DNA of 64,000 bases from Enterobacteria phage KhF1. The position numbers and the translations under genes are program-made. The DNA lies in the sequence record KT184313.1, one strand, 5' to 3'. The notes under the pieces are model-generated. The model had not been told where the DNA came from. It saw only the letters and a list, made by a program, of their open reading frames with translations, and did no database searches. Below, in pieces: positions 1-64,000 of the stretch (position 1 is its first letter; the number at the start of each line of letters is the position of its first letter).

Positions 1-528
1 ATCTGGATGAATTACATCATAGTTCTTGTCATCTTCATGTTTATCAGATGCTTGAGCTTTGATTTTCTTCATCGGCTGTTTAACAGCTACACGTTTACCA
101 TTTACTTCTTCAATCAGCATTACAGGGAATGACTGTTTAGCTGTCCACACAGCACCATCTTTATAAGCTGCTGCACGACTTACTTTCAAGATGTAGTAAG
201 TGTCTGCTTCAAAAGGTGGTTTACAACCAAACTTCTCTTCGAAGTCGTCTGCATCAACTGCTTCAGTAGTAACTTTATCCCATCCTTCTGGATTTTTCTT
301 AGACTTAGTAAACTCTTTAAACAGTTTGTTACCGTCTTCTGCCAGAATTGATACGCTGTAGTTACAATCTTTTCCTGGGAATTTCTTATCAATAGACTTA
401 CCTTTTCCCGGACGTGGTGAAGTATTCAGGTAATAAAACCAGACATCTTTCAGCAGGTAACGCAGAGTTTGACGTTCAGTACCGTTGTACTTCTCTACCG
501 GAGCTTTCATTTTAACAACTTTAGACAT
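1..528 (-). CDS. hypothetical protein, truncated at window edge (N-terminus MSKVVKMKAPVEKYNG...)
   Basis: Open minus-strand frame from ATG at 526-528 to position 1 with no stop; absent from ORF track because it lacks a stop inside the window. Confidence 0.5.
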   Translation of the reverse strand, partial: MSKVVKMKAPVEKYNGTERQTLRYLLKDVWFYYLNTSPRPGKGKSIDKKFPGKDCNYSVSILAEDGNKLFKEFTKSKKNPEGWDKVTTEAVDADDFEEKFGCKPPFEADTYYILKVSRAAAYKDGAVWTAKQSFPVMLIEEVNGKRVAVKQPMKKIKAQASDKHEDDKNYDVIHPD

Positions 529-601
529 TATTTTAAACCTCTATCTCAATTTATGAAGAGTACCAATTCTAATTTGTTGATACTCTATTGTCAAACATTA
601 A

Positions 602-751
602 TTACTGGAAGTTGTGCTTATCTTTAGAAGCTGCTTTACGTGCAGTTTTTCCAGTTCTTACACGTTTTTCTTCATAGTATTTTGCTGGTTTTCCAACAGT
701 GGCTTTTAAAGAGTCCCCAAAAACTTTTTCAAATGCTTTAGAGTGTTTCAT
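602..751 (-). CDS. small basic protein, 49 aa (MKHSKAFEKVFGDSLKATVGKPAKYYEEKRVRTGKTARKAASKDKHNFQ)
   Basis: Hand-translated minus-strand ORF; ATG overlaps stop of upstream ORF (ATGA coupling); below ORF-track size cutoff. Confidence 0.4.
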   Translation of the reverse strand: MKHSKAFEKVFGDSLKATVGKPAKYYEEKRVRTGKTARKAASKDKHNFQ

Positions 752-1041
752 GATATTCTCCGATATACTTGATATTCAAACACATTTTCTTTCATTATAA
801 ACAGCCAACCAATATTATGTTCAGGTATAGTAATAGTGACTGTGATAATACTGTGATGGAACTTTTCTTCTACCTCAACACCCCCATCACATTTCATGTA
901 GAGCATTCTATAGAACCTATCAATCTTTGTCAAACACTCTTCCTGAAATTTATTTAAACTTTTTTCTTCAAAGAAGGGTGTGAACCCCTCTCTTTTATAA
1001 CTATCACTCAGTTTCAAACGGGCAGTCATCTGCATCCTCAC
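748..1041 (-). CDS. hypothetical protein (true start probably ATG near 1029-1035)
   Basis: ORF track; GAGGA Shine-Dalgarno ahead of internal ATG; overlaps end of primase-helicase gene. Confidence 0.45.
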   Translation of the reverse strand: MRMQMTARLKLSDSYKREGFTPFFEEKSLNKFQEECLTKIDRFYRMLYMKCDGGVEVEEKFHHSIITVTITIPEHNIGWLFIMKENVFEYQVYRRIS

Positions 1042-2989
1042 TTAATACAGGTGGAATCGTTGAGCTTTGACGTTGTTCTTCAGTATAGACTTCACCAGTC
1101 TCACGGTCAAACACTTCATCCTCATAATGAGGCAAAGAGTCATCATAATGGTCTTCAGCTTCACCAATACCAAACTGTTGACGAATATTTTCTGCTGCGC
1201 CATCAATGTCAACACCACATCCAGAAGCTTTAATAAGACGTCCTGTATCTGGATTATACCAAGTATGACCAGCAATACCTGTTGACTTACCATGACGACG
1301 ACACTTAGTTAACTTGATTTTTGTCAAGTTTTTCTTAACTGGGTCTGGGTCAACCTTGTTACGCATTAACAGAATGTTATTCATAGAAATCTGAAAATAC
1401 GCACCAGAACCTTTGATATCCTCTTCAGAGATATCTCCACCTTCAGAGTTAGCTTTCTGACCACCTGCACTCTTACGAACGTGACATACGTTTACCTGCG
1501 CATACTGGTAGCGTTTGCAACGACGCAATAGCTCAGACAAAACTTCTTCTTCATCCGTATCAGAACGTGACAGGGCTAACGTGATAGGGTCAAGAATGAT
1601 AATCTTACAGTCTAAACTGTTAACAAGATAGTCAACAAACTCTAGCAGGTTATCTTGGTCAATTGCCCCTTGATGGTCAACGATATGGATACGACGGCCT
1701 TTAGATAGTTCTGCGTGTGCTCCTTTTAATTCATCCCAATCCCGTTCATCATAAGGAATCTCAGAAATCTGCTTGCTCAGGTGGATTGCACAGAGCATCT
1801 CCATCAACTCTTCATAGGTATCTTCTACAGGAATTACACCGATATTATAATCAGTTTCTTTCCAAGCTGAGTAAATCATCTCACGAGTGTAAGCTGACTT
1901 ACCTACTGAAGATGGTGCTGCAATAGTTGTAATCTCACCTAAACCGTAACCACCATAAGTCAGCCTGTTCAAATCTCCGAAAGATTCTGGGAAAGGAATC
2001 AATGGAATCTGACCACGATTCTTCATTGCCTCAAAACCATCTGCGAAGTTCTTGATACCAGCAGGGCAGTAACGGGGTGCATTGTAGATACGCTGCTTAA
2101 ATCCTTCCAGAACTGTATCTTTTTCTTTATAGAACTTTGTCCACCATTCGTTAAGGTCTTTTACACCTTCTGGATACTGGAATAAACGAACCTTCTCAAT
2201 AGGTAGGATACCAGCAGCCTCTTTAGTGGCTTTAGCACCTGCTTCATCGTTATCAAAGCACAAGTAAATCTCATCAAATGATGTAATGTACTGATAGTTA
2301 TCCTTGATAGACTTGATGTTTGCACCTGATGGAACAGATACGTGACAGTAATTCTTACGACGAGATTTGTCCTTAATCGCAAGAGAAGTCATATAGATTG
2401 CTGTCGCACATTCCATCTCACCTTCCCAGATGAATAGACGGTTACCACCTTCTGGAGCAATCCATGAACCGAACATTGCCAGTTCACCTTTAATGTCTCC
2501 AACACCACCAGAAAAGTCTTTTAACTTACCTCGTAGGTGCTCTTTTGGATGGTCTTCTGGGTAACGGTGACGAACACGATATCCAACATGCTCTAGCTTG
2601 CCATCTTCATTGCGTTTGTAAGTTGGGTAGAAATGCGCGTCAATTTCACCATCACTGTCAATGTCAACCTTGATACCCAAACGCTCAAGAACTTTTGCAG
2701 GAATCTTCCTGTCTTTCAAGTCCATCGCTTCAAGGTTTTCTTTCACATCGTCTAAATCCATTCCACGGAAAGTACGGTTTTTATTGTCTGAACCAGTAGA
2801 ATAAGTGCTCACGATTTGTCCTTTATCAAAATCCCACTCTGGGAAACCTTTGTTACAACTAAAGCAAGTCATTGAATAAGAACCATCGTCATGATGATAG
2901 ATTGAACCAGCATCTGATGAACCACAACGTGGACATGCGCAATGACCAACAAACTGACCAGCCTCTTTCAATTTACGACCTTTAGACAT
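1004..2989 (-). CDS. DNA primase/helicase (T7 gp4-like: zinc-binding domain, Toprim, DnaB-like helicase)
   Basis: N-terminal CPRCGSS...CFSCNKGF zinc ribbon; Toprim motif FDNDEAG; Walker A APSSVGKSAY; start set to ATG at 2989 with GAGGTG SD. Confidence 0.85.
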   Translation of the reverse strand: MSKGRKLKEAGQFVGHCACPRCGSSDAGSIYHHDDGSYSMTCFSCNKGFPEWDFDKGQIVSTYSTGSDNKNRTFRGMDLDDVKENLEAMDLKDRKIPAKVLERLGIKVDIDSDGEIDAHFYPTYKRNEDGKLEHVGYRVRHRYPEDHPKEHLRGKLKDFSGGVGDIKGELAMFGSWIAPEGGNRLFIWEGEMECATAIYMTSLAIKDKSRRKNYCHVSVPSGANIKSIKDNYQYITSFDEIYLCFDNDEAGAKATKEAAGILPIEKVRLFQYPEGVKDLNEWWTKFYKEKDTVLEGFKQRIYNAPRYCPAGIKNFADGFEAMKNRGQIPLIPFPESFGDLNRLTYGGYGLGEITTIAAPSSVGKSAYTREMIYSAWKETDYNIGVIPVEDTYEELMEMLCAIHLSKQISEIPYDERDWDELKGAHAELSKGRRIHIVDHQGAIDQDNLLEFVDYLVNSLDCKIIILDPITLALSRSDTDEEEVLSELLRRCKRYQYAQVNVCHVRKSAGGQKANSEGGDISEEDIKGSGAYFQISMNNILLMRNKVDPDPVKKNLTKIKLTKCRRHGKSTGIAGHTWYNPDTGRLIKASGCGVDIDGAAENIRQQFGIGEAEDHYDDSLPHYEDEVFDRETGEVYTEEQRQSSTIPPVLSEDADDCPFETE

Positions 2990-3182
2990 TAGCACCTCTT
3001 CGTTGTAGTTCTTCCTTCAATCCATTTTCAATCTTGTCCAGTTCATGAATTTCATCTGCAATCTCTTTCCTTCGTGATTCAACTCTCTTAAGACGTTCAA
3101 TCATTACCTCATTGGAAAGAGATGAGAGTTCCACTAAACGGTGGTCAATAACTTTAAAATTGTCTTTTACTCTCATCTTCAT
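2982..3182 (-). CDS. hypothetical small coiled-coil protein
   Basis: ORF track; charged, helical-looking sequence; compact operon spacing. Confidence 0.4.
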   Translation of the reverse strand: MKMRVKDNFKVIDHRLVELSSLSNEVMIERLKRVESRRKEIADEIHELDKIENGLKEELQRRGANV

Positions 3183-3190
3183 TCTCTCTT

Positions 3191-3934
3191 TTAAACTTTA
3201 ATGATGGCTCTTAGCTTGTTCTCAAGGTCTGCAAGAGTACCATTATTATGAATAATGTCACGCTCATATTTTGTAGAAATCCCATTTTCTGAAACATGTG
3301 ATGAAACTTTGTCCACATTGTCTCTTTTTACTTCAATAGTTTGGTGTGCAAATCTACTCAGCCATTCAGCTTCAGAGTCAAATCTTAAATCACTGATTAA
3401 GACAAAACCATATTGGTTTCTAAGTGAGCACATTTCATGGAATCTAACCATTCTTTTTTCAAGGTCTTTAGACCAGAACTTGTCGCCCATTACTTTACGG
3501 ACAACTTCAGTACCCCAAACCTGTTGAATTTGTCTTGATGAGAATTTATACTTTTTACTAAACCCCAGACGTGTTAATAGGGTAGGTTTAGCAACCTTCT
3601 TAAGTTCCATGATTAAGCGTCCTGTCAATTCTGACATAAGTTTAAAGTCCATATGGTAACGTTCATCTCTGAAGGTGAACTCCATAGCTTCCGTAACTTT
3701 AAACATCAGTTCAGAGTATGATAAGTCAAAAACCTGTGGAGTCTCTTTAGTTTCACCGTACAGGTCATTCCAAGTCAAGTCAAATATCTTTGATGCAGAT
3801 AGTTTAAGGTTGTCTGCAAAGGCCATTACAGCAACATTGTAGCCATACTCATCCTCTAAGATGTTCTTCACAATAGAACATGAGGTGTCTTTTCCAGAAC
3901 GTGCCTTTCCAGTAAATGCGATAATATTACTCAT
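3191..3934 (-). CDS. P-loop kinase, putative deoxynucleoside monophosphate kinase
   Basis: N-terminal Walker A AFTGKARSGKDT; strong SD AAGGGAGA before ATG; location in nucleotide-metabolism context. Confidence 0.55.
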   Translation of the reverse strand: MSNIIAFTGKARSGKDTSCSIVKNILEDEYGYNVAVMAFADNLKLSASKIFDLTWNDLYGETKETPQVFDLSYSELMFKVTEAMEFTFRDERYHMDFKLMSELTGRLIMELKKVAKPTLLTRLGFSKKYKFSSRQIQQVWGTEVVRKVMGDKFWSKDLEKRMVRFHEMCSLRNQYGFVLISDLRFDSEAEWLSRFAHQTIEVKRDNVDKVSSHVSENGISTKYERDIIHNNGTLADLENKLRAIIKV

Positions 3935-3995
3935 TTTATCTCCCTTAATTACTAAAAAGCCCCCAACTAAGGAGGCTTGTAAGATTTATAAAGAC

Positions 3996-4796
3996 TTAGT
4001 GCAGTTGCTCAGCAGACTCTTTTTCAGCCATAGCTGAGATTTGCTTCACAAAATCATCACCGAAGTTAATGCGTAGTTTCTCTTCAATGATTGAAGCACC
4101 AATATTCACCAAAACATCATTGATTGCTTGCATACTAACGCCACCAGTCATTTCCTCAATGAACTCAATACTCACACCCATCATCTGTGACAGTTGGATT
4201 AGTGCAACGATATTCATCATCGTAGAGATAGCTGGAATCATCAGTGCAACTTTCACCTGAAGTGGTTCAATGTCAGCTACAGAGTCATTTTCAACAGCTT
4301 CTTCCAAAGACTCTTTAGTTTGCTGGATAATCTCTTTGATTCGTGGGTTTAATTCTTCTACGCCCCAATCAAGTTTTTCATATCGTGAAAGTTTCTCTTC
4401 CATACGCTTCTCAAGAACAGCCATAACAGCACTCGTTGATGAGATAAGCGTATCAATAATGAAATCAGTGTCCTTAGTCAGCAACAGTTCCTTATCTTCG
4501 TCTGACATCCTGATATAGTCATTCTTTTGCATTTCATAAAAAATGAACTCAGCAAGTGCATCAACACCAACCGCAATAGATGCCAGAGCAAGTGTAGTGT
4601 CTGTTAACATCATGTTGACCTGTTCTGCAAAAGCACCGTTATCAGACTTGTCTTCAGGCAAGTTATAGCTTGCAGGCATAAACTGTTCTGTGTAGTTGTT
4701 ACCACGAAGAATCATAGCCATGCTTTCTACGGCATTGATTAAAAATGCTTCGTCAATACCTTTTTCTTCAAGCATCTTTTCTACATCGGTATTCAT
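3996..4796 (-). CDS. hypothetical acidic protein
   Basis: ORF track, 266 aa, Asp/Glu-rich; rho-independent terminator downstream. Confidence 0.5.
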   Translation of the reverse strand: MNTDVEKMLEEKGIDEAFLINAVESMAMILRGNNYTEQFMPASYNLPEDKSDNGAFAEQVNMMLTDTTLALASIAVGVDALAEFIFYEMQKNDYIRMSDEDKELLLTKDTDFIIDTLISSTSAVMAVLEKRMEEKLSRYEKLDWGVEELNPRIKEIIQQTKESLEEAVENDSVADIEPLQVKVALMIPAISTMMNIVALIQLSQMMGVSIEFIEEMTGGVSMQAINDVLVNIGASIIEEKLRINFGDDFVKQISAMAEKESAEQLH

Positions 4797-4797
4797 A

Positions 4798-5220
4798 TTA
4801 TTTCTCTCTCAGTTGGTTAAGTTTCTTTCTAGAACATTTTAAGTTTTCGGATGAAGAAAAGTCAAGTGTCTTTTCAGAACGTGGATAATAGTGTCTATCC
4901 CAAGAAGTTTCAACATCGTTAATCAGTGACGCTAGATTACACAGGTCTGTACCACTTTGCAATCTCTTTTTAAGAGAATCTAGTAAAGCAACTGTGTCTT
5001 TAGCTTTACGTCTCGCTGTAGCAACATCTTTCATATGCTCAAATACAGAGCATTTTAAGTCATCTTCATAGTTTTCAGACAACTCTATTTCATGTTGTAT
5101 ATCAACCATTCTCCTGTGATGGTGAGCATATTCCCGTTGAGCAGCAATGTCAAGTTCTTCCAACTTCTGCAAAGCTCTAACAAAGTCAGCTATGTCTGGG
5201 TGAACAAACATTTTCTGCAT
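4798..5220 (-). CDS. hypothetical protein
   Basis: ORF track, 140 aa; first gene of minus-strand operon diverging from the polymerase gene. Confidence 0.5.
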   Translation of the reverse strand: MQKMFVHPDIADFVRALQKLEELDIAAQREYAHHHRRMVDIQHEIELSENYEDDLKCSVFEHMKDVATARRKAKDTVALLDSLKKRLQSGTDLCNLASLINDVETSWDRHYYPRSEKTLDFSSSENLKCSRKKLNQLREK

Positions 5221-5477
5221 GTAAGCCTCTTTTAAGTAACTATTAAGTTTTAATCTTTTATCTTAACGTATTCTATACGTTATACTTTAAAGCTTTTTAA
5301 AAGCTATTAAATAATCTTTTAAGAATTTTAAAGTATCTGTATAGTTAAACTGTTAAGTAACCTTTTAAGTAAAAACCCACTTCGCAAAGATTAACACCTT
5401 GTCAAGTGCATTGTCAACTTGCTTTTTATAATTTTTTGCAGTAATGTATGAGGTTAATGATTTTAGAGGGAGTAAAA

Positions 5478-8177
5478 ATGGAAAACGTAGATTTTAAAAA
5501 CTTACATTTAGTTGGTGATACAGAAACTGATGGTTTACTCCTTGAGTTCACTAAAGTGCACGTAATGGCCTTTGCAGACTATAAATCTGACGATGAAGAG
5601 CCACCTGTATGGGTCTTTACAGATGAACCTATTCTCGGTCACAAGTACACCAAGTACATCAAGGGTGGCTTACGTGAAGGTATTGAGTTTGCGTTAAAGG
5701 CAAAACGTCTTTGCATCCATAATGGTCTCGGTTATGACTGGTGGGTTTTCAATCACATTGCACCTGATTTATGGAACTTTGATAATCCAAAGTGTAAACC
5801 GTGGAGTAATTTCTTTCAGGATTCTCTTATCCAGTCTCGTGTTCAGTGGATGGATAGACCAACTCCAAAGGGTTATAAAGGTGCTCATGGTTTGGCTGCA
5901 TGGGGTGCTCGTGTTGGTGTTCGTAAACCAGAGATTGAACACTGGGGTGTGTGGAATGCAGAAATCTTCACTCGTGTTGTAGAAGATATCCGTATTAACG
6001 CCAAAACTAAACGGGCACTTGATAACGAGTATCTCAAGCTTAAGAAGTGTGGCATAGACACTTATGAAACTTACATGAGAGCTAAAGAGACATCTTTCTG
6101 GATGAGCCAACAAGCTATCAATGGTTGGAAAGCTGATAAAGAGCTTATGGAGTTTCATGTAAAGGAACTTGACAAGTTGACTAATGAGCTTGCTTCAGAG
6201 GTTGAACCACATCTACCTCCAACTATTAAGACCAAAGGTAAAGTCACTGGAGAAGAGTTTGCAAAAGCTTGGAATGAGTATGTTGAAGCATTTGGTCATG
6301 CAGATGGACTGAAAAGAATTACCAAGTACCCTAAGACGAAGTATCGTCAGCAGGTTCGTAATGGTGAGATGCAGACTTACGCTATCAAACCTTTTGGTAA
6401 ACCAACTACCAAGATTTTCAACATTGAGAAGCGGAACTGCTACACTCCAACTAACACAGTTACTGGAGAAGAGTACAAAGAAGGCTTTGTAGCAATGAAG
6501 GATGCTCGTGCAATTTGCAATGAGTTGAATGCAAAGATTGGTAAGAAATGCAAAGACTGGAAGCCAGTAAAAACAGTCAAAACTGTGAAGTACTATAACA
6601 GCCACGTTGTTAACCACTTTGAACTTGAGTCAAGTCGCTACACAGGATTGATTGATGCACCATATACACCAATTGAGTTTGAAGTTTCTCGTATGACTCA
6701 GGTAGCAGTTGTAAAAGACTACTTGAAATCAGTTGGTTGGATTCCAGATGACTGGAACTACAAGAAAGACTCAGACGGTCGCCCTGTCAAAGTTTGTCGT
6801 TTCAAAGACAATAAAAAGATGATTACAAAACATCCTAAGTGGCAGGAGATGGTAGAACGGTGTGGATTGAGTTATGTCGAGCATGAAGGCGTCCAGTACA
6901 TCGAGCATAACTGGTCTGTGAAGAAGTACACAGATTTGCTTGAACCTTGCTTAATCCGTACTTCACCAAAACTTACGGAATCATCTTATGATACGATTGA
7001 AGGTGAGCTTGGACAGAAGATTGCTAAGTACTATACTTTGATGCACAGACGCAGAACTATTGAGAACTCAAAGGATGATGAAAAAGGTTGGTTGAACCAG
7101 ATTCGTCCTGATGGTCGCCTTAGTGCTGGCGCAATGGTGTTTGGTACTTCAACTGGACGTATGACACAATATGGTATTGTAAACGTACCGTCTGGTGCTG
7201 CTGTCTATGGGGAACCAATGAGGGCAGTGTGGATTTGTGAGGAAGGTACTAACGTTGTCTCTGTAGATATGAACTCAGCCCAGCTAGTTCTTCTTTGTAA
7301 CTTTATGGGTGATAAAGAGTTCACCAAAGCGGTAACGCAAGGTAAAGAAGAGATTGAGTTTATTCGTCAAGAAGATGGACGCTATTACTGCAAACATTTT
7401 GATGAGTACCTCAACCCAGAGATTGATAAGTACCTTCGCTATGACTCTGAGAATGACCTGTACGTTGTCTATTCAGGGACTGATGCACATACACTGAACA
7501 GTATTTACTTTAGCTTGAATGATGAGCAGGACATCTTGACTTGTCGAGCTACTCAGGATGAGAATCTTCTTCATGAGATTAGTAAAGGTCGTAAGAAAGC
7601 TAAGAATGGTATCTATGCACTGCTGTTCGGTGCAGGGGATGAGAAGTTTGCTAAGACGATTAAAGCTGCAACTACTCAGGAAGGTGCACTGACTAAACAA
7701 ACTTACTTTATTCGTTTGCCTAAAATTAAGAAGCTACTAGATGACTTGGAAGCTGACTACAAAGCAACTAAAAAGGCACTTGAAGAGGTGTTTGGTAAGA
7801 CTGCTGCAATCTCTAAAGGGGGTTTTGTAAAGGTTGCTGGAGCTTGGTTGTGGTGTAAATCTCCACACAAACTGTTGAACTACCTTTTGATGGGTTCAGA
7901 GGCCCAGATTCAAAATGAGGCAATTAACCTTGCTTGTCGTCGCATGATTGACGAAGGGTTGATGAAGCTAAATGGGCGTAAACCAGCTATAGGTGCTCGC
8001 TTATTGTGCGCATATCACGATGAGACTAGCTGGGAATGTCCAGAGAGTATGACGGCAGAAGTAAAAGCAGTTACTGATTGGTATTACGGGCAAGCTTCTA
8101 AGAACTTAGGTCTTAAGAAAGAAACACTTGTAACTGGTACAGGTAAGGTTGGAAAGAGTTGGCTTGAGGTTCACTGA
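5478..8177 (+). CDS. DNA polymerase, family A, with 3'-5' exonuclease domain
   Basis: Exo motif VGDTETDGL; Pol A motif B RKKAKNGIYALLFGAG; motif C YHDE; start set to ATG at 5478 after GAGGGAG SD. Confidence 0.9.
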   Translation: MENVDFKNLHLVGDTETDGLLLEFTKVHVMAFADYKSDDEEPPVWVFTDEPILGHKYTKYIKGGLREGIEFALKAKRLCIHNGLGYDWWVFNHIAPDLWNFDNPKCKPWSNFFQDSLIQSRVQWMDRPTPKGYKGAHGLAAWGARVGVRKPEIEHWGVWNAEIFTRVVEDIRINAKTKRALDNEYLKLKKCGIDTYETYMRAKETSFWMSQQAINGWKADKELMEFHVKELDKLTNELASEVEPHLPPTIKTKGKVTGEEFAKAWNEYVEAFGHADGLKRITKYPKTKYRQQVRNGEMQTYAIKPFGKPTTKIFNIEKRNCYTPTNTVTGEEYKEGFVAMKDARAICNELNAKIGKKCKDWKPVKTVKTVKYYNSHVVNHFELESSRYTGLIDAPYTPIEFEVSRMTQVAVVKDYLKSVGWIPDDWNYKKDSDGRPVKVCRFKDNKKMITKHPKWQEMVERCGLSYVEHEGVQYIEHNWSVKKYTDLLEPCLIRTSPKLTESSYDTIEGELGQKIAKYYTLMHRRRTIENSKDDEKGWLNQIRPDGRLSAGAMVFGTSTGRMTQYGIVNVPSGAAVYGEPMRAVWICEEGTNVVSVDMNSAQLVLLCNFMGDKEFTKAVTQGKEEIEFIRQEDGRYYCKHFDEYLNPEIDKYLRYDSENDLYVVYSGTDAHTLNSIYFSLNDEQDILTCRATQDENLLHEISKGRKKAKNGIYALLFGAGDEKFAKTIKAATTQEGALTKQTYFIRLPKIKKLLDDLEADYKATKKALEEVFGKTAAISKGGFVKVAGAWLWCKSPHKLLNYLLMGSEAQIQNEAINLACRRMIDEGLMKLNGRKPAIGARLLCAYHDETSWECPESMTAEVKAVTDWYYGQASKNLGLKKETLVTGTGKVGKSWLEVH

Positions 8178-8238
8178 TTAGTATTGACAAGGTTCTCATG
8201 GAAGAGTACCTTATACTGTATCTTATATAGGAGGGCTT

Positions 8239-8448
8239 ATGAGCCACCGTGGAAGAACTCATGCAGCAATGATGAAAGGTGCTTCAAAGGAGACTATCAA
8301 GAATCGTAAGCAAAAGTTGTTTGAGAGAATGAACAGACTCATTGATAACACTCCCCTGTCTGGTGGTGAGAAAGTTTTCCTTAAAAGTAACCTTAAAAGC
8401 ATTGCACAAGAACTTATAGACATTGAATATTGGAGATATCAAAAATGA
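8239..8448 (+). CDS. hypothetical protein
   Basis: ORF track, 69 aa. Confidence 0.4.
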   Translation: MSHRGRTHAAMMKGASKETIKNRKQKLFERMNRLIDNTPLSGGEKVFLKSNLKSIAQELIDIEYWRYQK

Positions 8449-8663: not shown

Positions 8664-8795
8664 AGAAAATGTACAGTCTCTGGGGGAGGGTTGGTAAAGG
8701 TTTTGACTGGACACTTCTTCGTTCAAACGTTAAACGTAGTGAATTACCAGAACTCATCACTCACTATTTAAAAACATACAGAGAGGTAGATTATC

Positions 8796-12756: not shown

Positions 12757-13140
12757 ATGAAAAAGATTTTATTAGCTGCTGCAATGGTTATGGTAATGAA
12801 TTTACCAGTCAATGCAACAGAACTTCCAAATGTGGACTTATCAGGTGTTCCAGAAGACACTTGCCAGATTGTTAAAGGTGTTGCCCTATCTAAAGGTGAA
12901 CTACTTAAACCAATCTCTGAAGAGTCTTTAACAGAGATGACTGATAAGGTAACTGACTATCAGTATCGTGTTCTTGCAGAGTATTTCCTGCAATCTGCAA
13001 ATATTAAAGAGAAGCACCCTGATGATATTGATGTACAGGCTATGCTCAATCATCGTATCCAGTTTAAAGAAGATTTGATGCAAAAAGCTATGTATGGTGT
13101 TGAGTATTTCTTAGAAAACAGAAGCTGCACAGGTATTTGA
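12757..13140 (+). CDS. putative secreted protein
   Basis: N-terminal signal peptide MKKILLAAAMVMVMNLPVNA. Confidence 0.5.
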   Translation: MKKILLAAAMVMVMNLPVNATELPNVDLSGVPEDTCQIVKGVALSKGELLKPISEESLTEMTDKVTDYQYRVLAEYFLQSANIKEKHPDDIDVQAMLNHRIQFKEDLMQKAMYGVEYFLENRSCTGI

Positions 13141-55119: not shown

Positions 55120-56600
55120 GAAATTTATATTTTTTATAAAATTTTATCGGTTGTCCCAACCCCTGGGTCACCATTATATGTGAACAAAATATCTACCCTT
55201 CTTAACAACCTTCTTAAGCTTACTCTCTATATATAGTTATATAGTACTATATAGTATCTTAGTATCTATCTAGTGGTCTTAATAGCCCTCTGTATAACCC
55301 TTCTAACTAGCCTTCTAACAAGCCTTCTTAACAACCTATACAATCACCTTAACCATCTCTCTATACGCTCTTAGAAGCCTCTATACACCTCTTAATCTCT
55401 AGGTAAGCTATGTGACTCTCTATAGGTGTTCACTAGGTATTACTAAGCCTCTATATAGACTGTTTTAACAAACTTAACAGGAATATCTTTACAGACCTTA
55501 TCTCACAAGGTCTAACACGGTACTAACAAGGTATCTTATAAGCCTGTTATTACCTGTATTTTTAAAAGGCTGTATAGGTAATTATTCAGAATCTTAAAAT
55601 TTTTATAAAATAGGACTATCAAGTCATTTTTTAGGGTCTTTGAAGGAACTGAAAAATATCTGTAGAAGATGTATATCTGCTTGGTAGCCCTTAACAACTC
55701 CCTTACAAGTACTTTGCAAAATTTTAAAATATCATTAACAATTCCTTAACAACTCTCTCAAGTTCTTAACATCTCTTCAGAGGTCTTAACAGATTCTTAA
55801 CAGAACTAACAAGGTTGTAACAAGTTCTTAACAGTTGATACATAGGCTTTACAGAATCTTAACAGATGACTAACAAGAGCTAACAAGTTAATTTTTAAGA
55901 GTTATTTTGTTAAGATAATTAACAAGTCTCTAATAAGTGTTTAATCTTTTTAACAAGCTATTAACATGGTCACTACTCTTTTCTTATCGTTCCCTTTCCT
56001 TTCTTAGTGATTCTTTAAACATACCTCTTAAAAGCTCTCTATAGCCCCTTGTAAGCTCTTTTAAGCCTCTTCCTAGTAATTACACCCCAACTGTACAGAT
56101 ACCTCTTTATAAGGCTTTACAGGGGCTTTAAAGGCTATGTCAAAGACTCTTACAAGGTTTTTACGTGGTCTTAACAGAGATTTAACAAGGGGCTAACAAG
56201 TTGCTAACAAGTGCCTTAAAAGCATAACTATGTAGGGATTGTTAAGAAATTGTTAAGAGAATGTTAAGGGGGCTAGCATTTACGTAACTTTTAAGCAACT
56301 TCAAAGTAACTTTATAGCCCCTATAACATACTTTTAAGACACTAACAAGCCCTTTTTAGATATTCACAAGAATACTAATGAGATGATAAAGCTTACACCC
56401 TTATAAGATTCTTTTAAGTCTCTGGGAAGCTTTATAAAGGGCTTTTAAGGGTGAGGTAATGCAATCCCTTAAGTTAGGTTGATAAGGCTGTTATAGAGCT
56501 TTATAGAGCGTTTAAATGGGCCATCCCCTTTCTGGGGTTATTGGCTTTTATTTAAGTTGATTTGATAAGAGGTTATAGAGTAGACTATAGAGTTATTGTT
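55120..56600. repeat. 1.5 kb non-coding tract dense in degenerate short repeats (CTTAACAA, CTAACAAG, TATAGAG and relatives)
   Basis: No ORF over 60 aa; dozens of TTAACA-containing 8-10-mers seen directly. Confidence 0.7.
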
Positions 56601-56727
56601 TTTAAGGTCTGATAAGATTCTGGAAAGGAAAGGAAAAGGATTGTATAGAGGCTATTACATAGACGTAAAAAGCCCCATTTTAAGGGGCTGTTCAGGTATC
56701 TGGGGCTATTTAGCCCCGTTGCGTCGA

Positions 56728-62203: not shown

Positions 62204-62290
62204 TTTTGAATCTCCTAGTTTAAGGATTTAGTGGTAAAGCTCTTTATCTGGGGCTTACTTTATCGAACTATAAGCCCCTTGTAAAGTACT
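62204..62290 (-). promoter_or_regulatory. conserved intergenic leader, type B
   Basis: Same sequence family as 59398..59484. Confidence 0.6.
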
Positions 62291-62584
62291 TTATTTGTTA
62301 ATTTTCAGCTTTGCATAACTTCTCATTGTACGAATGGGGGATGTTAATGCTACGCGTCTAATGTATGCCTTTTTCGTGTATACAGTTGTCTTCCCGATAG
62401 TGTTTACACATGTAAAAAGGTTTATCGGTGAATTTTTTAACTTCAACTGTTTATCAACCTTCACGCCCCACCTTACAGCAGATTGTTTTCCGTTGTCAAC
62501 CACTTTCCCGCATAACTTTTTAGCCATGATACGAGCGTCATCACGAGTCTTTGCGGTAATTACAACGTTTTTGATAATAGCCAT
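62291..62584 (-). CDS. small early-type hypothetical basic protein
   Basis: Start set to ATG at 62584 (MAIIKNV...). Confidence 0.5.
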   Translation of the reverse strand: MAIIKNVVITAKTRDDARIMAKKLCGKVVDNGKQSAVRWGVKVDKQLKLKNSPINLFTCVNTIGKTTVYTKKAYIRRVALTSPIRTMRSYAKLKINK

Positions 62585-62670
62585 TTTTAAGTTCTCCAAT
62601 TTAGGATTTAGTGGTAAAGCTCTTTATCTGGGGCTTACTTTATCGAACTATAAGCCCCTTGTAAAGTACT
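62585..62670 (-). promoter_or_regulatory. conserved intergenic leader, type B
   Basis: Near-identical to 62204..62290. Confidence 0.6.
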
Positions 62671-63054
62671 TTATTTGTTAATTTTGAAGATAGTTACATA
62701 ACCATCGCTGCCGATTATTTGAGATACTCCAGCTTTTTCCACTGAATAGCCCATATTTTCAAGATGATAAACAGCATCATCATAACCATATGCGCCACCC
62801 TGATAACGTCTCTTATCGCATCTTATCAGGTTTTTACCACGTCCTGCAAGTGCATTCAGTACAGCTTTTTCACTTGATAGTGTACCATCTAACATGGTTG
62901 CCGTGTAATGGTTGATTTTATTCCCGTTAATATCATACTTAAAATTGAATGCGTGAACAACAATCAATTTGCCGTTAAATTTTTCATCAAGTGACTTCTC
63001 CAGTGCGTTGCGGAAGTTGTCTTTGTTGATGAATTTCGGTGCACGATAAGCCAT
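62671..63054 (-). CDS. early-type hypothetical protein
   Basis: Preceded by type B leader. Confidence 0.55.
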   Translation of the reverse strand: MAYRAPKFINKDNFRNALEKSLDEKFNGKLIVVHAFNFKYDINGNKINHYTATMLDGTLSSEKAVLNALAGRGKNLIRCDKRRYQGGAYGYDDAVYHLENMGYSVEKAGVSQIIGSDGYVTIFKINK

Positions 63055-63142
63055 TTTTAAATCTCCTAGTTTAAGGGTTAATTTAGTAAAGCTCTTTATC
63101 TGGGGCTTAAGATATCAGCTTTTAAGCCCCCTGTAAAGTACT
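63055..63142 (-). promoter_or_regulatory. conserved intergenic leader, type B
   Basis: tttaagggttaatttagtaaagctctttatctggggcttaagatatcagcttttaagccccctgtaaagtactttatttg. Confidence 0.6.
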
Positions 63143-63364
63143 TTATTTGTCGTAGTAGTAAATCGCTGTCTGCCTTGTAAATTTCTTAGTGTTTCTTGTA
63201 AGGTAGCAATTAGAATTAATAGCCGTTTCTACATAGTTGCAATAGTCGGCTTCTGATATTCTGGACCATACGCCACAAATTTGCATGTAAAAACGTTTTA
63301 CCTTTGTGTTAACGTTAGTTGTAACCATCAATTCACGACTGTAAAGCATTATTTCGCGCTCCAT
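63143..63364 (-). CDS. small early-type hypothetical protein
   Basis: ORF track; overlaps upstream gene end. Confidence 0.45.
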   Translation of the reverse strand: MEREIMLYSRELMVTTNVNTKVKRFYMQICGVWSRISEADYCNYVETAINSNCYLTRNTKKFTRQTAIYYYDK

Positions 63365-63537
63365 TTCTCAAAGAGTTCAGCAGGGAAACGTTCGCTATAC
63401 CCTTTTAAGGAAAAAGTATTATCTTTGTGGATAGCTTCCACCTGATAAACCTTATAAGAGCGTATAGTTAGCATTTTGTAAGAGTATTCGTGCTTAATGT
63501 TAACCTCATCGCCAACTTTAATTTTTCTTGATGCCAT
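63349..63537 (-). CDS. small early-type hypothetical protein
   Basis: Preceded by type A leader. Confidence 0.5.
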   Translation of the reverse strand: MASRKIKVGDEVNIKHEYSYKMLTIRSYKVYQVEAIHKDNTFSLKGYSERFPAELFEKWSAK

Positions 63538-63605
63538 TTTTGAATCTCCAGTTTAGGATTTTATTTAGTGGGGAAGGTCATTCCCTCCCCGTTGATGTAA
63601 ATATT
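63538..63605 (-). promoter_or_regulatory. conserved intergenic leader, type A (first of the array)
   Basis: ccagtttaggattttatttagtggggaaggtcattccctccccgttgatgtaaatattag. Confidence 0.6.
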
Positions 63606-63750
63606 AGATAACCACGTTCAAAGAGTCAATAAAAATTTTAAAAATATTTTTGGCAAAACTGTAATGAAACGGATGCGCACGACTACCACAAAACAGAACG
63701 CAAATCAAGAATTATTTTTCAATCCGCTACAAATTTTTCTATTGACTTTT

Positions 63751-63786
63751 GGGGAGAGGGGGAGTAAGAGGGGGAGAGGGGTTGGG
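63751..63786. repeat. G-rich tract GGGGAGAGGGGGAGTAAGAGGGGGAGAGGGGTTGGG
   Basis: Four G-runs of at least 4 within 36 nt on plus strand. Confidence 0.6.
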
Positions 63787-63805
63787 CTGGCTGTCTATAA
63801 AAACC

Positions 63806-63983
63806 TACCTGCACAATTCTAAAATGATTTTTCTTGCCCGACCTGAGCGGGGTCTGCACGTTTTGAAAATGAAAAAGCTCTTTGGAGATTACCTGCACAG
63901 TTTGAAAATGAATTTTCTCTTTGGAGTTCAAAATTCTCTCTACAGATTTCTCTACAGAGATATACCTGCACAATTCTGAAATG
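63806..63983. repeat. three copies of 21-bp iteron ACCTGCACA(A/G)TT(C/T)T(A/G)AAATGA plus a degenerate fourth
   Basis: Copies at 63806-63826, 63891-63911, 63963-63983; degenerate copy at about 63853-63873. Confidence 0.65.
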
Positions 63984-64000
63984 AAAAAGCCCTCCTTACC

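Follow-up and report, generated by a model that had tools for sequence, protein, structure and literature searches.

Four conserved direct repeats beside a structure-prone G-rich tract in Felix O1-like phages: a candidate protein-binding array between two transcription units

The described systems that come closest to the element considered here, a cluster of short direct repeats next to a G-rich tract in the genome of Enterobacteria phage KhF1, are of several kinds. Iteron origins, such as lambda ori, P1 oriR and those of F, R6K and pPS10, contain several direct repeats of 19-22 bp in one orientation. The Tus-Ter sites and the TTF-I 'Sal box' terminators of ribosomal DNA are arrays of asymmetric protein sites, again in one orientation, downstream of a transcription unit. 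T4-type phages have promoter-early stem-loop cassettes, and in these phages, as in the PAK_P1-like ones, the shuffling of small genes has been attributed to promoter/stem-loop cassettes; mitochondrial CSBII is a promoter-proximal tract that forms a G-quadruplex (G4) or H-DNA. PAK_P1-like phages carry 41-nt early-promoter repeats (PMC4309531), and the injection stop signal (iss) of T5 and its relatives is, in T5, a region of 1.2-1.7 kb, rich in inverted repeats and palindromes and with eight DnaA boxes arranged in pairs, that lies largely within the 10-kb terminal repeat (Davison, bioRxiv 10.1101/866236). The stretch of KhF1 DNA analysed, referred to below as the window, comprises 64 kb (KT184313.1) of the roughly 90-kb genome of this Felix O1-like myophage (Felixounavirus). 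Close to its end, four direct repeats and the G-rich tract occupy a 520-bp gap separating two minus-strand transcription units. A clustered direct-repeat protein site is a familiar kind of element, and we tentatively read the repeats as a protein-binding regulatory or insulator array, with both the binding and the role deduced from sequence; the architecture falls short of the defining features of iteron origins, the T5 iss and promoter-repeat cassettes.

The points of similarity and difference can be stated briefly. The KhF1 array resembles iterons in the length and common orientation of its repeats and, as at theta origins, its asymmetric bipartite site would suit a monomer reading two successive major grooves, with A/T-rich DNA and promoters close by. 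Unlike theta-origin iterons, however, the units lie 37-75 bp apart across lineages, as opposed to about 22 bp, with no recognised Rep or other initiator gene adjacent and, in KhF1, no DnaA boxes. Like the T5 iss, the array is non-coding and repeat-rich and borders the terminal early genes on their inner side, a physical end being 8-9% of the genome length away, in a region that is better conserved than the neighbouring genes; in contrast to the T5 iss, it measures 180 bp, consists of four direct rather than inverted repeats, lies 7.5 kb outside a 613-bp terminal repeat, and has no paired consensus DnaA boxes and none within one mismatch at the repeats. With the PAK_P1 and T4-type cassettes, it shares a unit of about 40 bp, a lineage-specific sequence and a place in the early, variable region of a related group of myophages, but each of those cassettes includes a consensus sigma-70 promoter and they are scattered among small genes, whereas the KhF1 repeats are clustered and lack a consistent promoter. 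The layout of the array is reminiscent of the Tus-Ter and 'Sal box' barriers, with no sequence similarity, as an analogy only. As for the tract, it has, like those of the CSBII type, four runs of 4-5 G on one strand next to promoter-like hexamers, and is a purine mirror repeat as well; unlike them, it can be dispensed with, as about 40% of natural variants show, and structure formation is predicted only.

The repeats and the short elements associated with them, in window coordinates, are as follows.

63807-63827, minus strand: repeat R1, ACCTGCACAATTCTAAAATGA on the plus strand and TCATTTTAGAATTGTGCAGGT on the minus strand
63852-63872, minus strand: repeat R2, the 'degenerate' copy, GTCTGCACGTTTTGAAAATGA on the plus strand and TCATTTTCAAAACGTGCAGAC on the minus strand
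plus-strand 63878-63887: element before R2 on the minus strand, CTCCAAAGAG
63891-63911, minus strand: repeat R3, ACCTGCACAGTTTGAAAATGA on the plus strand and TCATTTTCAAACTGTGCAGGT on the minus strand
63917-63926: conserved element before R3 on the minus strand, ACTCCAAAGAG, or CTCTTTGGAG on the plus strand
63964-63984, minus strand: repeat R4, ACCTGCACAATTCTGAAATGA on the plus strand and TCATTTCAGAATTGTGCAGGT on the minus strand, its position conserved in all relatives examined

An earlier note on this DNA had described three 21-bp repeats and one degenerate copy, and all are where it placed them (63807, 63891 and 63964; 63852 for the degenerate one). Start to start, the four copies are 45, 39 and 73 bp apart; for the three best ones (R1, R3 and R4), which were said to be spaced by 72-85 bp, we measured 84 and 73 bp, that is, 8 and 7 helical turns, with R2 about 0.3 turn off the helical phase of the other three. 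The order along transcription is terminator, R4, R3, R2, R1, C-rich tract, A/T-rich block with inverted hexamers, promoter, leader, and the ATG at 63537. On one side, the gap is bounded by a "phosphatase" gene (261 amino acids, Macro domain) and on the other side by the first gene of the small-gene array, which occupies 56.3-63.5 kb of the window and of which the proteins examined are all at most 180 amino acids long. Over its last 2 kb, the window is 99.6% identical to Salmonella phage SeKF_63 and 83-98% identical to most other Felixounavirus records, and the window coordinate equals the coordinate in the SeKF_63 locus (L001) plus 55999. Past the window end, as read in SeKF_63, come the remainder of a hairpin and then the stop codon of the macro-domain gene, with no further repeats, so that the array, which the earlier note had left at the window edge, does not continue; nor do the repeats recur elsewhere in the window or in the closest full genome. 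The Felix O1 counterpart of the region is 7916-8422 of its reference (RefSeq) record, where no feature is annotated.

The repeats stand out statistically. A degenerate 19-mer has four sites in the window, all in one orientation, against 0.22 expected, and none of 100 shuffles reaches four; the bipartite core, TCATTTY-N6-GTGCA, has no other site in the window or the rest of the closest full genome (0.045 expected). Written with its trailing G (TCATTTY-N6-GTGCAG), the core is asymmetric and 19 bp long, and each core belongs to a unit some 40 bp long. In a logo of 84 unique instances, information spans about 36 bp: TCATTT and GTGCA are invariant, the intervening 6 nt are semi-conserved, and a flanking tract of 4-5 nt consists of A alone in some copies and of T alone in others. 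Such a switch of the A5/T5 tract from one strand to the other between copies is incompatible with a single RNA motif and fits recognition of DNA, by its shape, rather than of an RNA sequence.

For comparison, we fetched 29 loci via the macro-domain gene and a second set of 31 loci by a two-repeat pattern from 2.9 million viral contigs. Four copies are present in Felixounavirus and Suspvirus (spacing 73, 39 and 45 bp, with 43 in wV8), in the Mooglevirus group (73-77, 39-41 and 45 bp), and in the Kolesnikvirus Erwinia phage phiEa21-4 (37, 37 and 39 bp), with copy number, order and orientation fixed in these four genera of Ounavirinae, although one Felixounavirus variant, described below, keeps three. 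An uncultured relative with 29-44% protein identity (L069) has five copies in two groups, with a spacing of 36 bp in one and 38 and 38 bp in the other, and in every lineage, this one included, the repeats lie downstream of the macro-domain gene in the same orientation. The scan of the 2.9 million contigs with the motif pair yielded matches only in contigs of 84-94 kb, and all those examined are Felix O1-like phages or their relatives; the motif, accordingly, appears to be lineage-specific.

Nucleotide diversity (pi) among 17 Felixounavirus sequences is 0.006-0.063 in the repeat cores (0.006 for the GTGCA half-sites and 0.020 for the TCATTTY half-sites), compared with 0.139 at third codon positions of the adjacent gene and 0.029 and 0.018 at first and second ones. 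Repeat diversity is thus about 8-fold below that of the neighbouring third codon positions, a constraint like that on codon positions 1 and 2. R2, the copy that the earlier note had called degenerate, has the lowest value among the four (pi 0.006), and all four copies look functional. Between genera, the gap is 72-82% identical, no less than the flanking gene (72-75%), and the downstream genes are unalignable. The low diversity, together with the between-genus identity of the gap, marks the array as a selected cis-element, one under purifying selection.

The uncultured relative just mentioned (IMG/VR contig 3300045988_063805, bases 1-6366) is 88 kb long and has no close match among 50,697 isolated phage records. 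Its gene order is kept, from a pseT-like gene through to the macro domain and the repeats, and a DNA adenine methylase-like gene is located just upstream of the macro-domain gene.

Building on the observed anatomy of the array, the uniqueness of its motif, its conservation and the purifying selection that acts on it, we suggest that the four repeats would be sites for one sequence-specific DNA-binding protein, encoded by either the phage or the host. Each repeat, with TCATTT and GTGCA as its invariant halves at a distance of about one helical turn and with an adjacent A/T-tract, could be bound by a monomer with two DNA-reading elements, and the three best sites, at intervals of 73 and 84 bp, share one side of the helix, where the bound proteins could cooperate. 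The resulting nucleoprotein complex might insulate the two transcription units, either as a reinforcement of the terminator or as an obstacle to transcription that starts at a divergent plus-strand promoter, and alternatively, or in addition, might set the activity or timing of the early promoters. The half-site layout, the fixed orientation, the phasing by 7 and 8 turns and a position that has the terminator of the long upstream operon on one side and the promoters of the terminal small early genes on the other make such a cooperative complex the best fit. The earlier note had proposed, as one of two options, cooperative binding of a regulator, and this is partly supported by the bipartite core in fixed orientation, the conserved copies, the constraint and the 7- and 8-turn phasing.

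Several observations weigh against a protein-binding array of this kind. The adjacent genes all belong to families of unknown function, with no binding protein identified among them: Pfam and PHROG searches with ten neighbouring proteins found no recognisable regulator or initiator gene, for which the earlier note had suggested a search, and eight small-gene array proteins had no significant Pfam match and fell into PHROG families of unknown function. The sites are 100-370 bp away from the promoters, a long distance if the protein were a repressor or activator of the simple kind; the promoters vary between genera, whereas the repeats do not; and in the uncultured relative, a TTAACA-rich cluster of about 250 bp stands between the repeats and the next promoter. 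Finally, a Felixounavirus variant of the locus (L041, L042, L055 and L065, including VpaE1_ev035 and EcoM2) has a different macro-domain gene end and terminator, and only three direct copies plus a partial inverted copy, GTCTGCACAGATA, that replaces R3 and its flank.

As to the identity of the repeats, a host derivation was rejected, with no match in 5,426 E. coli genomes, and among known sites compared by eye, as consensus sequences (CRP, IHF, Fis, marbox, sigma-54, LexA, the XerC/dif arm and the oriC 13-mers), none suits all four copies. Felix O1-like phages are classic diagnostic and biocontrol phages and now a genetic model (Bas63), and the gap is among the best conserved non-coding segments of the subfamily, at the place where a long early/middle operon gives way to highly variable small early genes; the PhageMaP study of Bas63 does not report on it. 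Identification of the protein at the four sites would offer a first handle on transcription timing, replication start or DNA entry.

The transcription signals that surround the array are the following.

63987-64000, minus strand: descending arm, with its T-tract, of the intrinsic (rho-independent) terminator that closes the upstream operon (terminator scan on the SeKF_63 locus)
63686-63747, both strands: highly conserved A/T-rich block with inverted -35-like hexamers at its edges (alignment of 12 loci; diversity 0.038)
63601-63629, minus strand: strong sigma-70-type promoter P1 of the small-gene array, TTGACT-17-TAATAT (L001 7630-7602)
63538-63600, minus strand: 5' leader of the first array gene, with the hairpin GGGGAGGGAATGACCTTCCCC and a Shine-Dalgarno sequence; ATG at 63537

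The terminator hairpin has a 17-pair stem (L001 8029-7988, that is, window 64028-63987) and extends beyond the window; its T-tract, GGGCTTTTTCATTTC, leads straight into R4, and the last gene of the operon that it ends is the macro-domain 'phosphatase'. The KhF2 and wV8 records annotate a terminator at the same place. P1 has an A/T-rich upstream element (63630-63658) and equivalents in the relatives. The inverted hexamers (plus-strand TTGACT, 63742-63747, and minus-strand TTGATT, 63708-63703) are candidates for a back-to-back promoter pair. For the plus strand, the -10 would be TAAGAG at 63765-63770, inside the G-tract, with a 17-bp spacing, a weak match; for the minus-strand 'P2', it would be TAGTCG at 63685-63680. 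The G-tract overlaps the spacer and the would-be -10 of the plus-strand site; this site reads better in an alternative allele B (TGG-TAGCCT), and the equivalent in phiEa21-4 is strong (TTGACG-18-TATACT, scoring 10/12). The A/T-rich stretches that an origin might use for unwinding, at 63630-63658 and 63709-63741, can equally be read as upstream elements of promoters. That the repeats themselves are promoters was considered and rejected: there is no -35/-10 pair consistent across copies or genera on either strand, and in such a reading, the invariant GTGCA would land in the promoter spacer. On the minus strand, only R4 reaches a promoter score of 9/12, and on the plus strand, two of the four units do so in phiEa21-4 and at most one of the four in KhF1 (direct reading).

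The tract next to the repeats calls for separate consideration.

63751-63790, plus strand: G-rich tract (C-rich on the transcribed strand), GGGGAGAGGGGGAG-TAA-GAGGGGGAGAGGGG at 63751-63781, then TTGGGCTGG to 63790

Positions 63751-63781 form a perfect homopurine mirror repeat with 14-nt arms and a TAA spacer, which qualifies as an H-DNA motif, and at the same time a canonical four-run G4 motif, G4-AGA-G5-AGTAAGA-G5-AGA-G4, the sole one in the window (0.05 expected). The capacity for quadruplex formation ascribed to the tract by the earlier note is borne out in silico: the tract has the top G4Hunter score of the window, 2.36, and with quadruplex energies on, a single strand is predicted to adopt a four-layer fold at -23 to -27 kcal/mol, compared with 0 to -8.7 kcal/mol for the best structure with these energies off, with no competing hairpin. 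A second, weaker G4Hunter peak (at least 1.5) is located at 8681-8706 of the window.

The segment is dimorphic. Among 28 distinct variants, 16 have the G-tract (disrupted in two), and the other 12 have an unrelated sequence of about 50 nt; the window carries the form that we denote allele A. Suspvirus and Mooglevirus retain the pattern of G-runs with altered loops, and phiEa21-4 has a shorter form with three runs. By its distribution, then, the tract is old but dispensable and, being swapped out in 12 of the 28 variants, is not an essential part of the element; it is best described as an optional, structure-prone spacer, with the quadruplex and triplex as predicted forms.

The same tract appears to be a preferred target of tagmentation, to the detriment of assemblies. 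One metagenome contig (L011, at the locus end) terminates in Nextera adapter sequence at the tract, and in LR699048.1 (VpaE1_ev035, L041), a mosaic-end remnant, CTGTCTCT-AGAGACAG, sits inside it, flanked by a 14-nt target duplication. Two further irregularities look like assembly artefacts: an 89-kb contig (L019, from 3783+230) is chimeric, switching to unrelated GC-rich sequence just after R2, and the Andreotti record (MN850610.1, L004, bases 1-23) begins inside the region with an inverted copy of the small hairpin beside R2, annotated as repeat_region. The coincidence of a G4- and triplex-prone, dimorphic tract with adapter remnants, contig ends and mis-joins makes the locus a trap for genome assembly and annotation.

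Contigs and records that end in or near the G-tract also raised the possibility of a genome terminus or packaging site, which we rejected on the mapping of the terminal repeat; the breaks at the tract are technical because they carry Nextera adapter sequence. The two ends of the SeKF_63 record share an identical sequence of at least 604 bp, mapping to window 55660-56273, which corresponds to a repeat of 613 bp located about 7.5 kb from the array. For UAB_Phi87, SpeI end fragments of 4322 and 2819 bp and an experimentally determined 608-bp terminal repeat have been published (PMC4837284); these fit the SpeI sites at positions 13014 and 19582 of its genome, which lie on either side of the same place, with an observed distance of 6568 bp against 6533 expected. 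A 613-bp repeat has been reported for another member of the group (PMC6454146). The window itself, with a homologue of the SeKF_63 613-bp direct terminal repeat at about 55660-56273, runs through the concatemer junction. This segment is rich in short repeats of the TTAACA/TGTTAA type (11 in 300 bp, against an average of 0.5), and clusters of the TTAACA type also occur at the end of the Erwinia phage MM7 record and, in Moogle and SUSP2, at a distance of 6-7 kb from the repeats; the cluster is probably the terminase recognition region. The longest pyrimidine and purine runs of the window, TTCCCTTTCCTTTCTT at 55990-56005 and GGAAAGGAAAGGAAAAGGA at 56622-56640, lie inside and just beside the terminal-repeat segment.

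A different function for the array would be that of a replication origin, which the earlier note had put forward and which we consider unlikely. Under this scenario, modelled on the T7 and T4 origins or on the G-rich CSBII element of the mitochondrial heavy-strand origin, the repeats would be iterons bound by a phage initiator, and the adjoining promoters and A/T-rich, structure-prone DNA would provide transcriptional activation or an R-loop primer. The presence of four direct repeats of 19-21 bp, in one orientation and under selection, with tandem and divergent promoter-like sites and A/T-rich DNA adjoining them, is compatible with such a role, and an R-loop would be favoured by the G-rich non-template strand that follows closely on the plus-strand -35/-10. 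Moreover, the replisome is T7-like, a type that uses transcription-dependent origins. However, the gp4-like primase-helicase of the phage (Toprim and DnaB_C) has no recognised origin-binding domain, the Pfam and PHROG searches revealed no initiator-type gene nearby, the spacing (39-73 bp here, 37-75 bp across lineages) departs from the 22-24-bp periodicity typical of iterons, and in KhF1 there is no DnaA box at the repeats; moreover, on the refuting condition that the earlier note had named, the repeats neither run on past the window nor turn up elsewhere. The proposal found no positive support. Furthermore, the G-tract is missing in about 40% of the variants, where the plus-strand transcript would be C-rich, and in KhF1, the plus-strand -10, TAAGAG, lacks the critical last T. 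A literature search found no paper linking Felix O1 with iterons, and none that describes an origin or the present repeats in phages of this group; the direct repeats given in the Felix O1 genome paper are limited to those of at least 24 bp, and are located elsewhere.

It is improbable, in our estimation, that the region encodes a non-coding RNA of some 250-330 nt, transcribed from the plus-strand promoter by the G-tract through the tract and the four repeats and acting, for example, as a protein sponge. The plus-strand promoter-like site is indeed conserved (TTGACT-17-TAAGAG, with TGG-TAGCCT in allele B and a score of 10/12 in phiEa21-4), and GGGCTGGCT comes after it in all genera, but the -10 is weak in KhF1, a terminator scan found no terminator in the plus-strand direction, and the A5/T5 tract flips strand between copies. 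The covariance models of Rfam 15 gave only two chance-level matches (E 0.68 and 0.82), both outside the repeats, and no conserved RNA structure was found on either strand, with covariation terms of +0.51 and +0.19 and consensus energies of -18.6 and -6.3 kcal/mol.

Hardly better placed is the notion that the GTGCA half-sites are degenerate boxes for the host DnaA, clustered so as to recruit or titrate it, for an origin or for membrane tethering as proposed for T5; we give it little credence. The case for it comes from two relatives: each phiEa21-4 repeat holds CTATGCACA or TTATGCACG, one mismatch from TTWTNCACA, and the copies in the uncultured relative read CTATGCACA, CTATCCACG and CTATGCACG; the T5 iss region, too, has conserved DnaA boxes (bioRxiv 10.1101/866236). 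By contrast, KhF1 and all Felixounavirus, Suspvirus and Mooglevirus loci read ACCTGCACA, with three mismatches, and no site at their repeats comes within one mismatch. Nor do the four copies count as independent observations, and the TCATTT half-site, which is equally invariant, is left unexplained.

Very unlikely, in our view, is a role in genome entry, with the array marking the inner edge of a first-entering segment as a T5-like injection stop, or working together with the terminal repeat. Were this nonetheless the case, and were this the end that enters first, Felix O1-like phages would deliver the terminal 8-9% of the genome (terminal repeat, small-gene array and promoters), pausing at the protein-bound array, an idea that we, by analogy with T5, regard as a long shot. 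Geometry is what recommends it: from the array, it is about 7.5 kb to the terminal repeat and 7.8-8.3 kb, or 8.6-9.2% of the genome, to a physical end, with a similar distance, 6-7.5 kb, in four genera, and the T5 first-step segment amounts to 7.9% (bioRxiv 10.1101/866236). Small early-type genes make up the segment from the array to the end, and they are less well conserved than the non-coding region, which is the same argument as for the T5 iss; and in the uncultured relative, a TTAACA-rich cluster of the kind that occupies the terminal repeat lies immediately next to the repeats. Yet, if that cluster were its terminus, the 'first step' segment would hold no genes. Pfam and PHROG revealed no homologue of T5 A1, A2 or dmp among the array proteins, with no direct comparison to the T5 proteins made, and no report of stepwise injection in Felix O1-like phages turned up, although no search was aimed at that question. 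To our knowledge, pausing two-step DNA entry is so far confined to T5-like siphoviruses.

It is scarcely credible that the repeats are a functionless remnant of tandem duplications of the terminator distal arm and T-tract, with which the units share AAAGAGC/GGAGGGC, T5 and CATTT, or part of a small coding gene, as annotations across them in SeKF_63, wV8, UAB_Phi87 and EcoM2 would have it, given that purifying selection is some 8-fold stronger than at third codon positions, that the array is retained at 29-44% protein identity, that no frame is preserved between genera and that the Felix O1 RefSeq record has no gene here, so that conservation largely refutes both versions.

Coding capacity was also rejected on spacing, which differs between genera by non-multiples of three (39/45, 41/45 and 37/37/39), and on a 2-nt indel in wV8, whereby no reading frame is preserved. 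The small hypothetical coding sequences annotated on either strand across the repeats and the tract in several GenBank records (L001 7605-7972, L003 1767-1931, L040 22010-22325 and L042 1230-1484), their frames not being conserved between genera, are almost certainly spurious.

Elsewhere in the window, a family of repeats of about 86 bp lies between the small genes (62220-62305, 62600-62685 and 63072-63157, with more copies leftwards). Its unit combines a GC-stem hairpin, GGGGCTTA...TAAGCCCC, with a promoter-like pair, TTTACA-17-TAAAGT, and a Shine-Dalgarno sequence, and the family (62220-63157) resembles the 57-bp repeats of the Felix O1 paper and the promoter/stem-loop cassettes of T4-type and PAK_P1-like phages. 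Among database records, GU169904.1, a 147-kb entry named 'Staphylococcus phage SA1', contains the present Felix O1-like region at 128744-130726 with 90.8% identity, and is probably a chimera or a mixed assembly.

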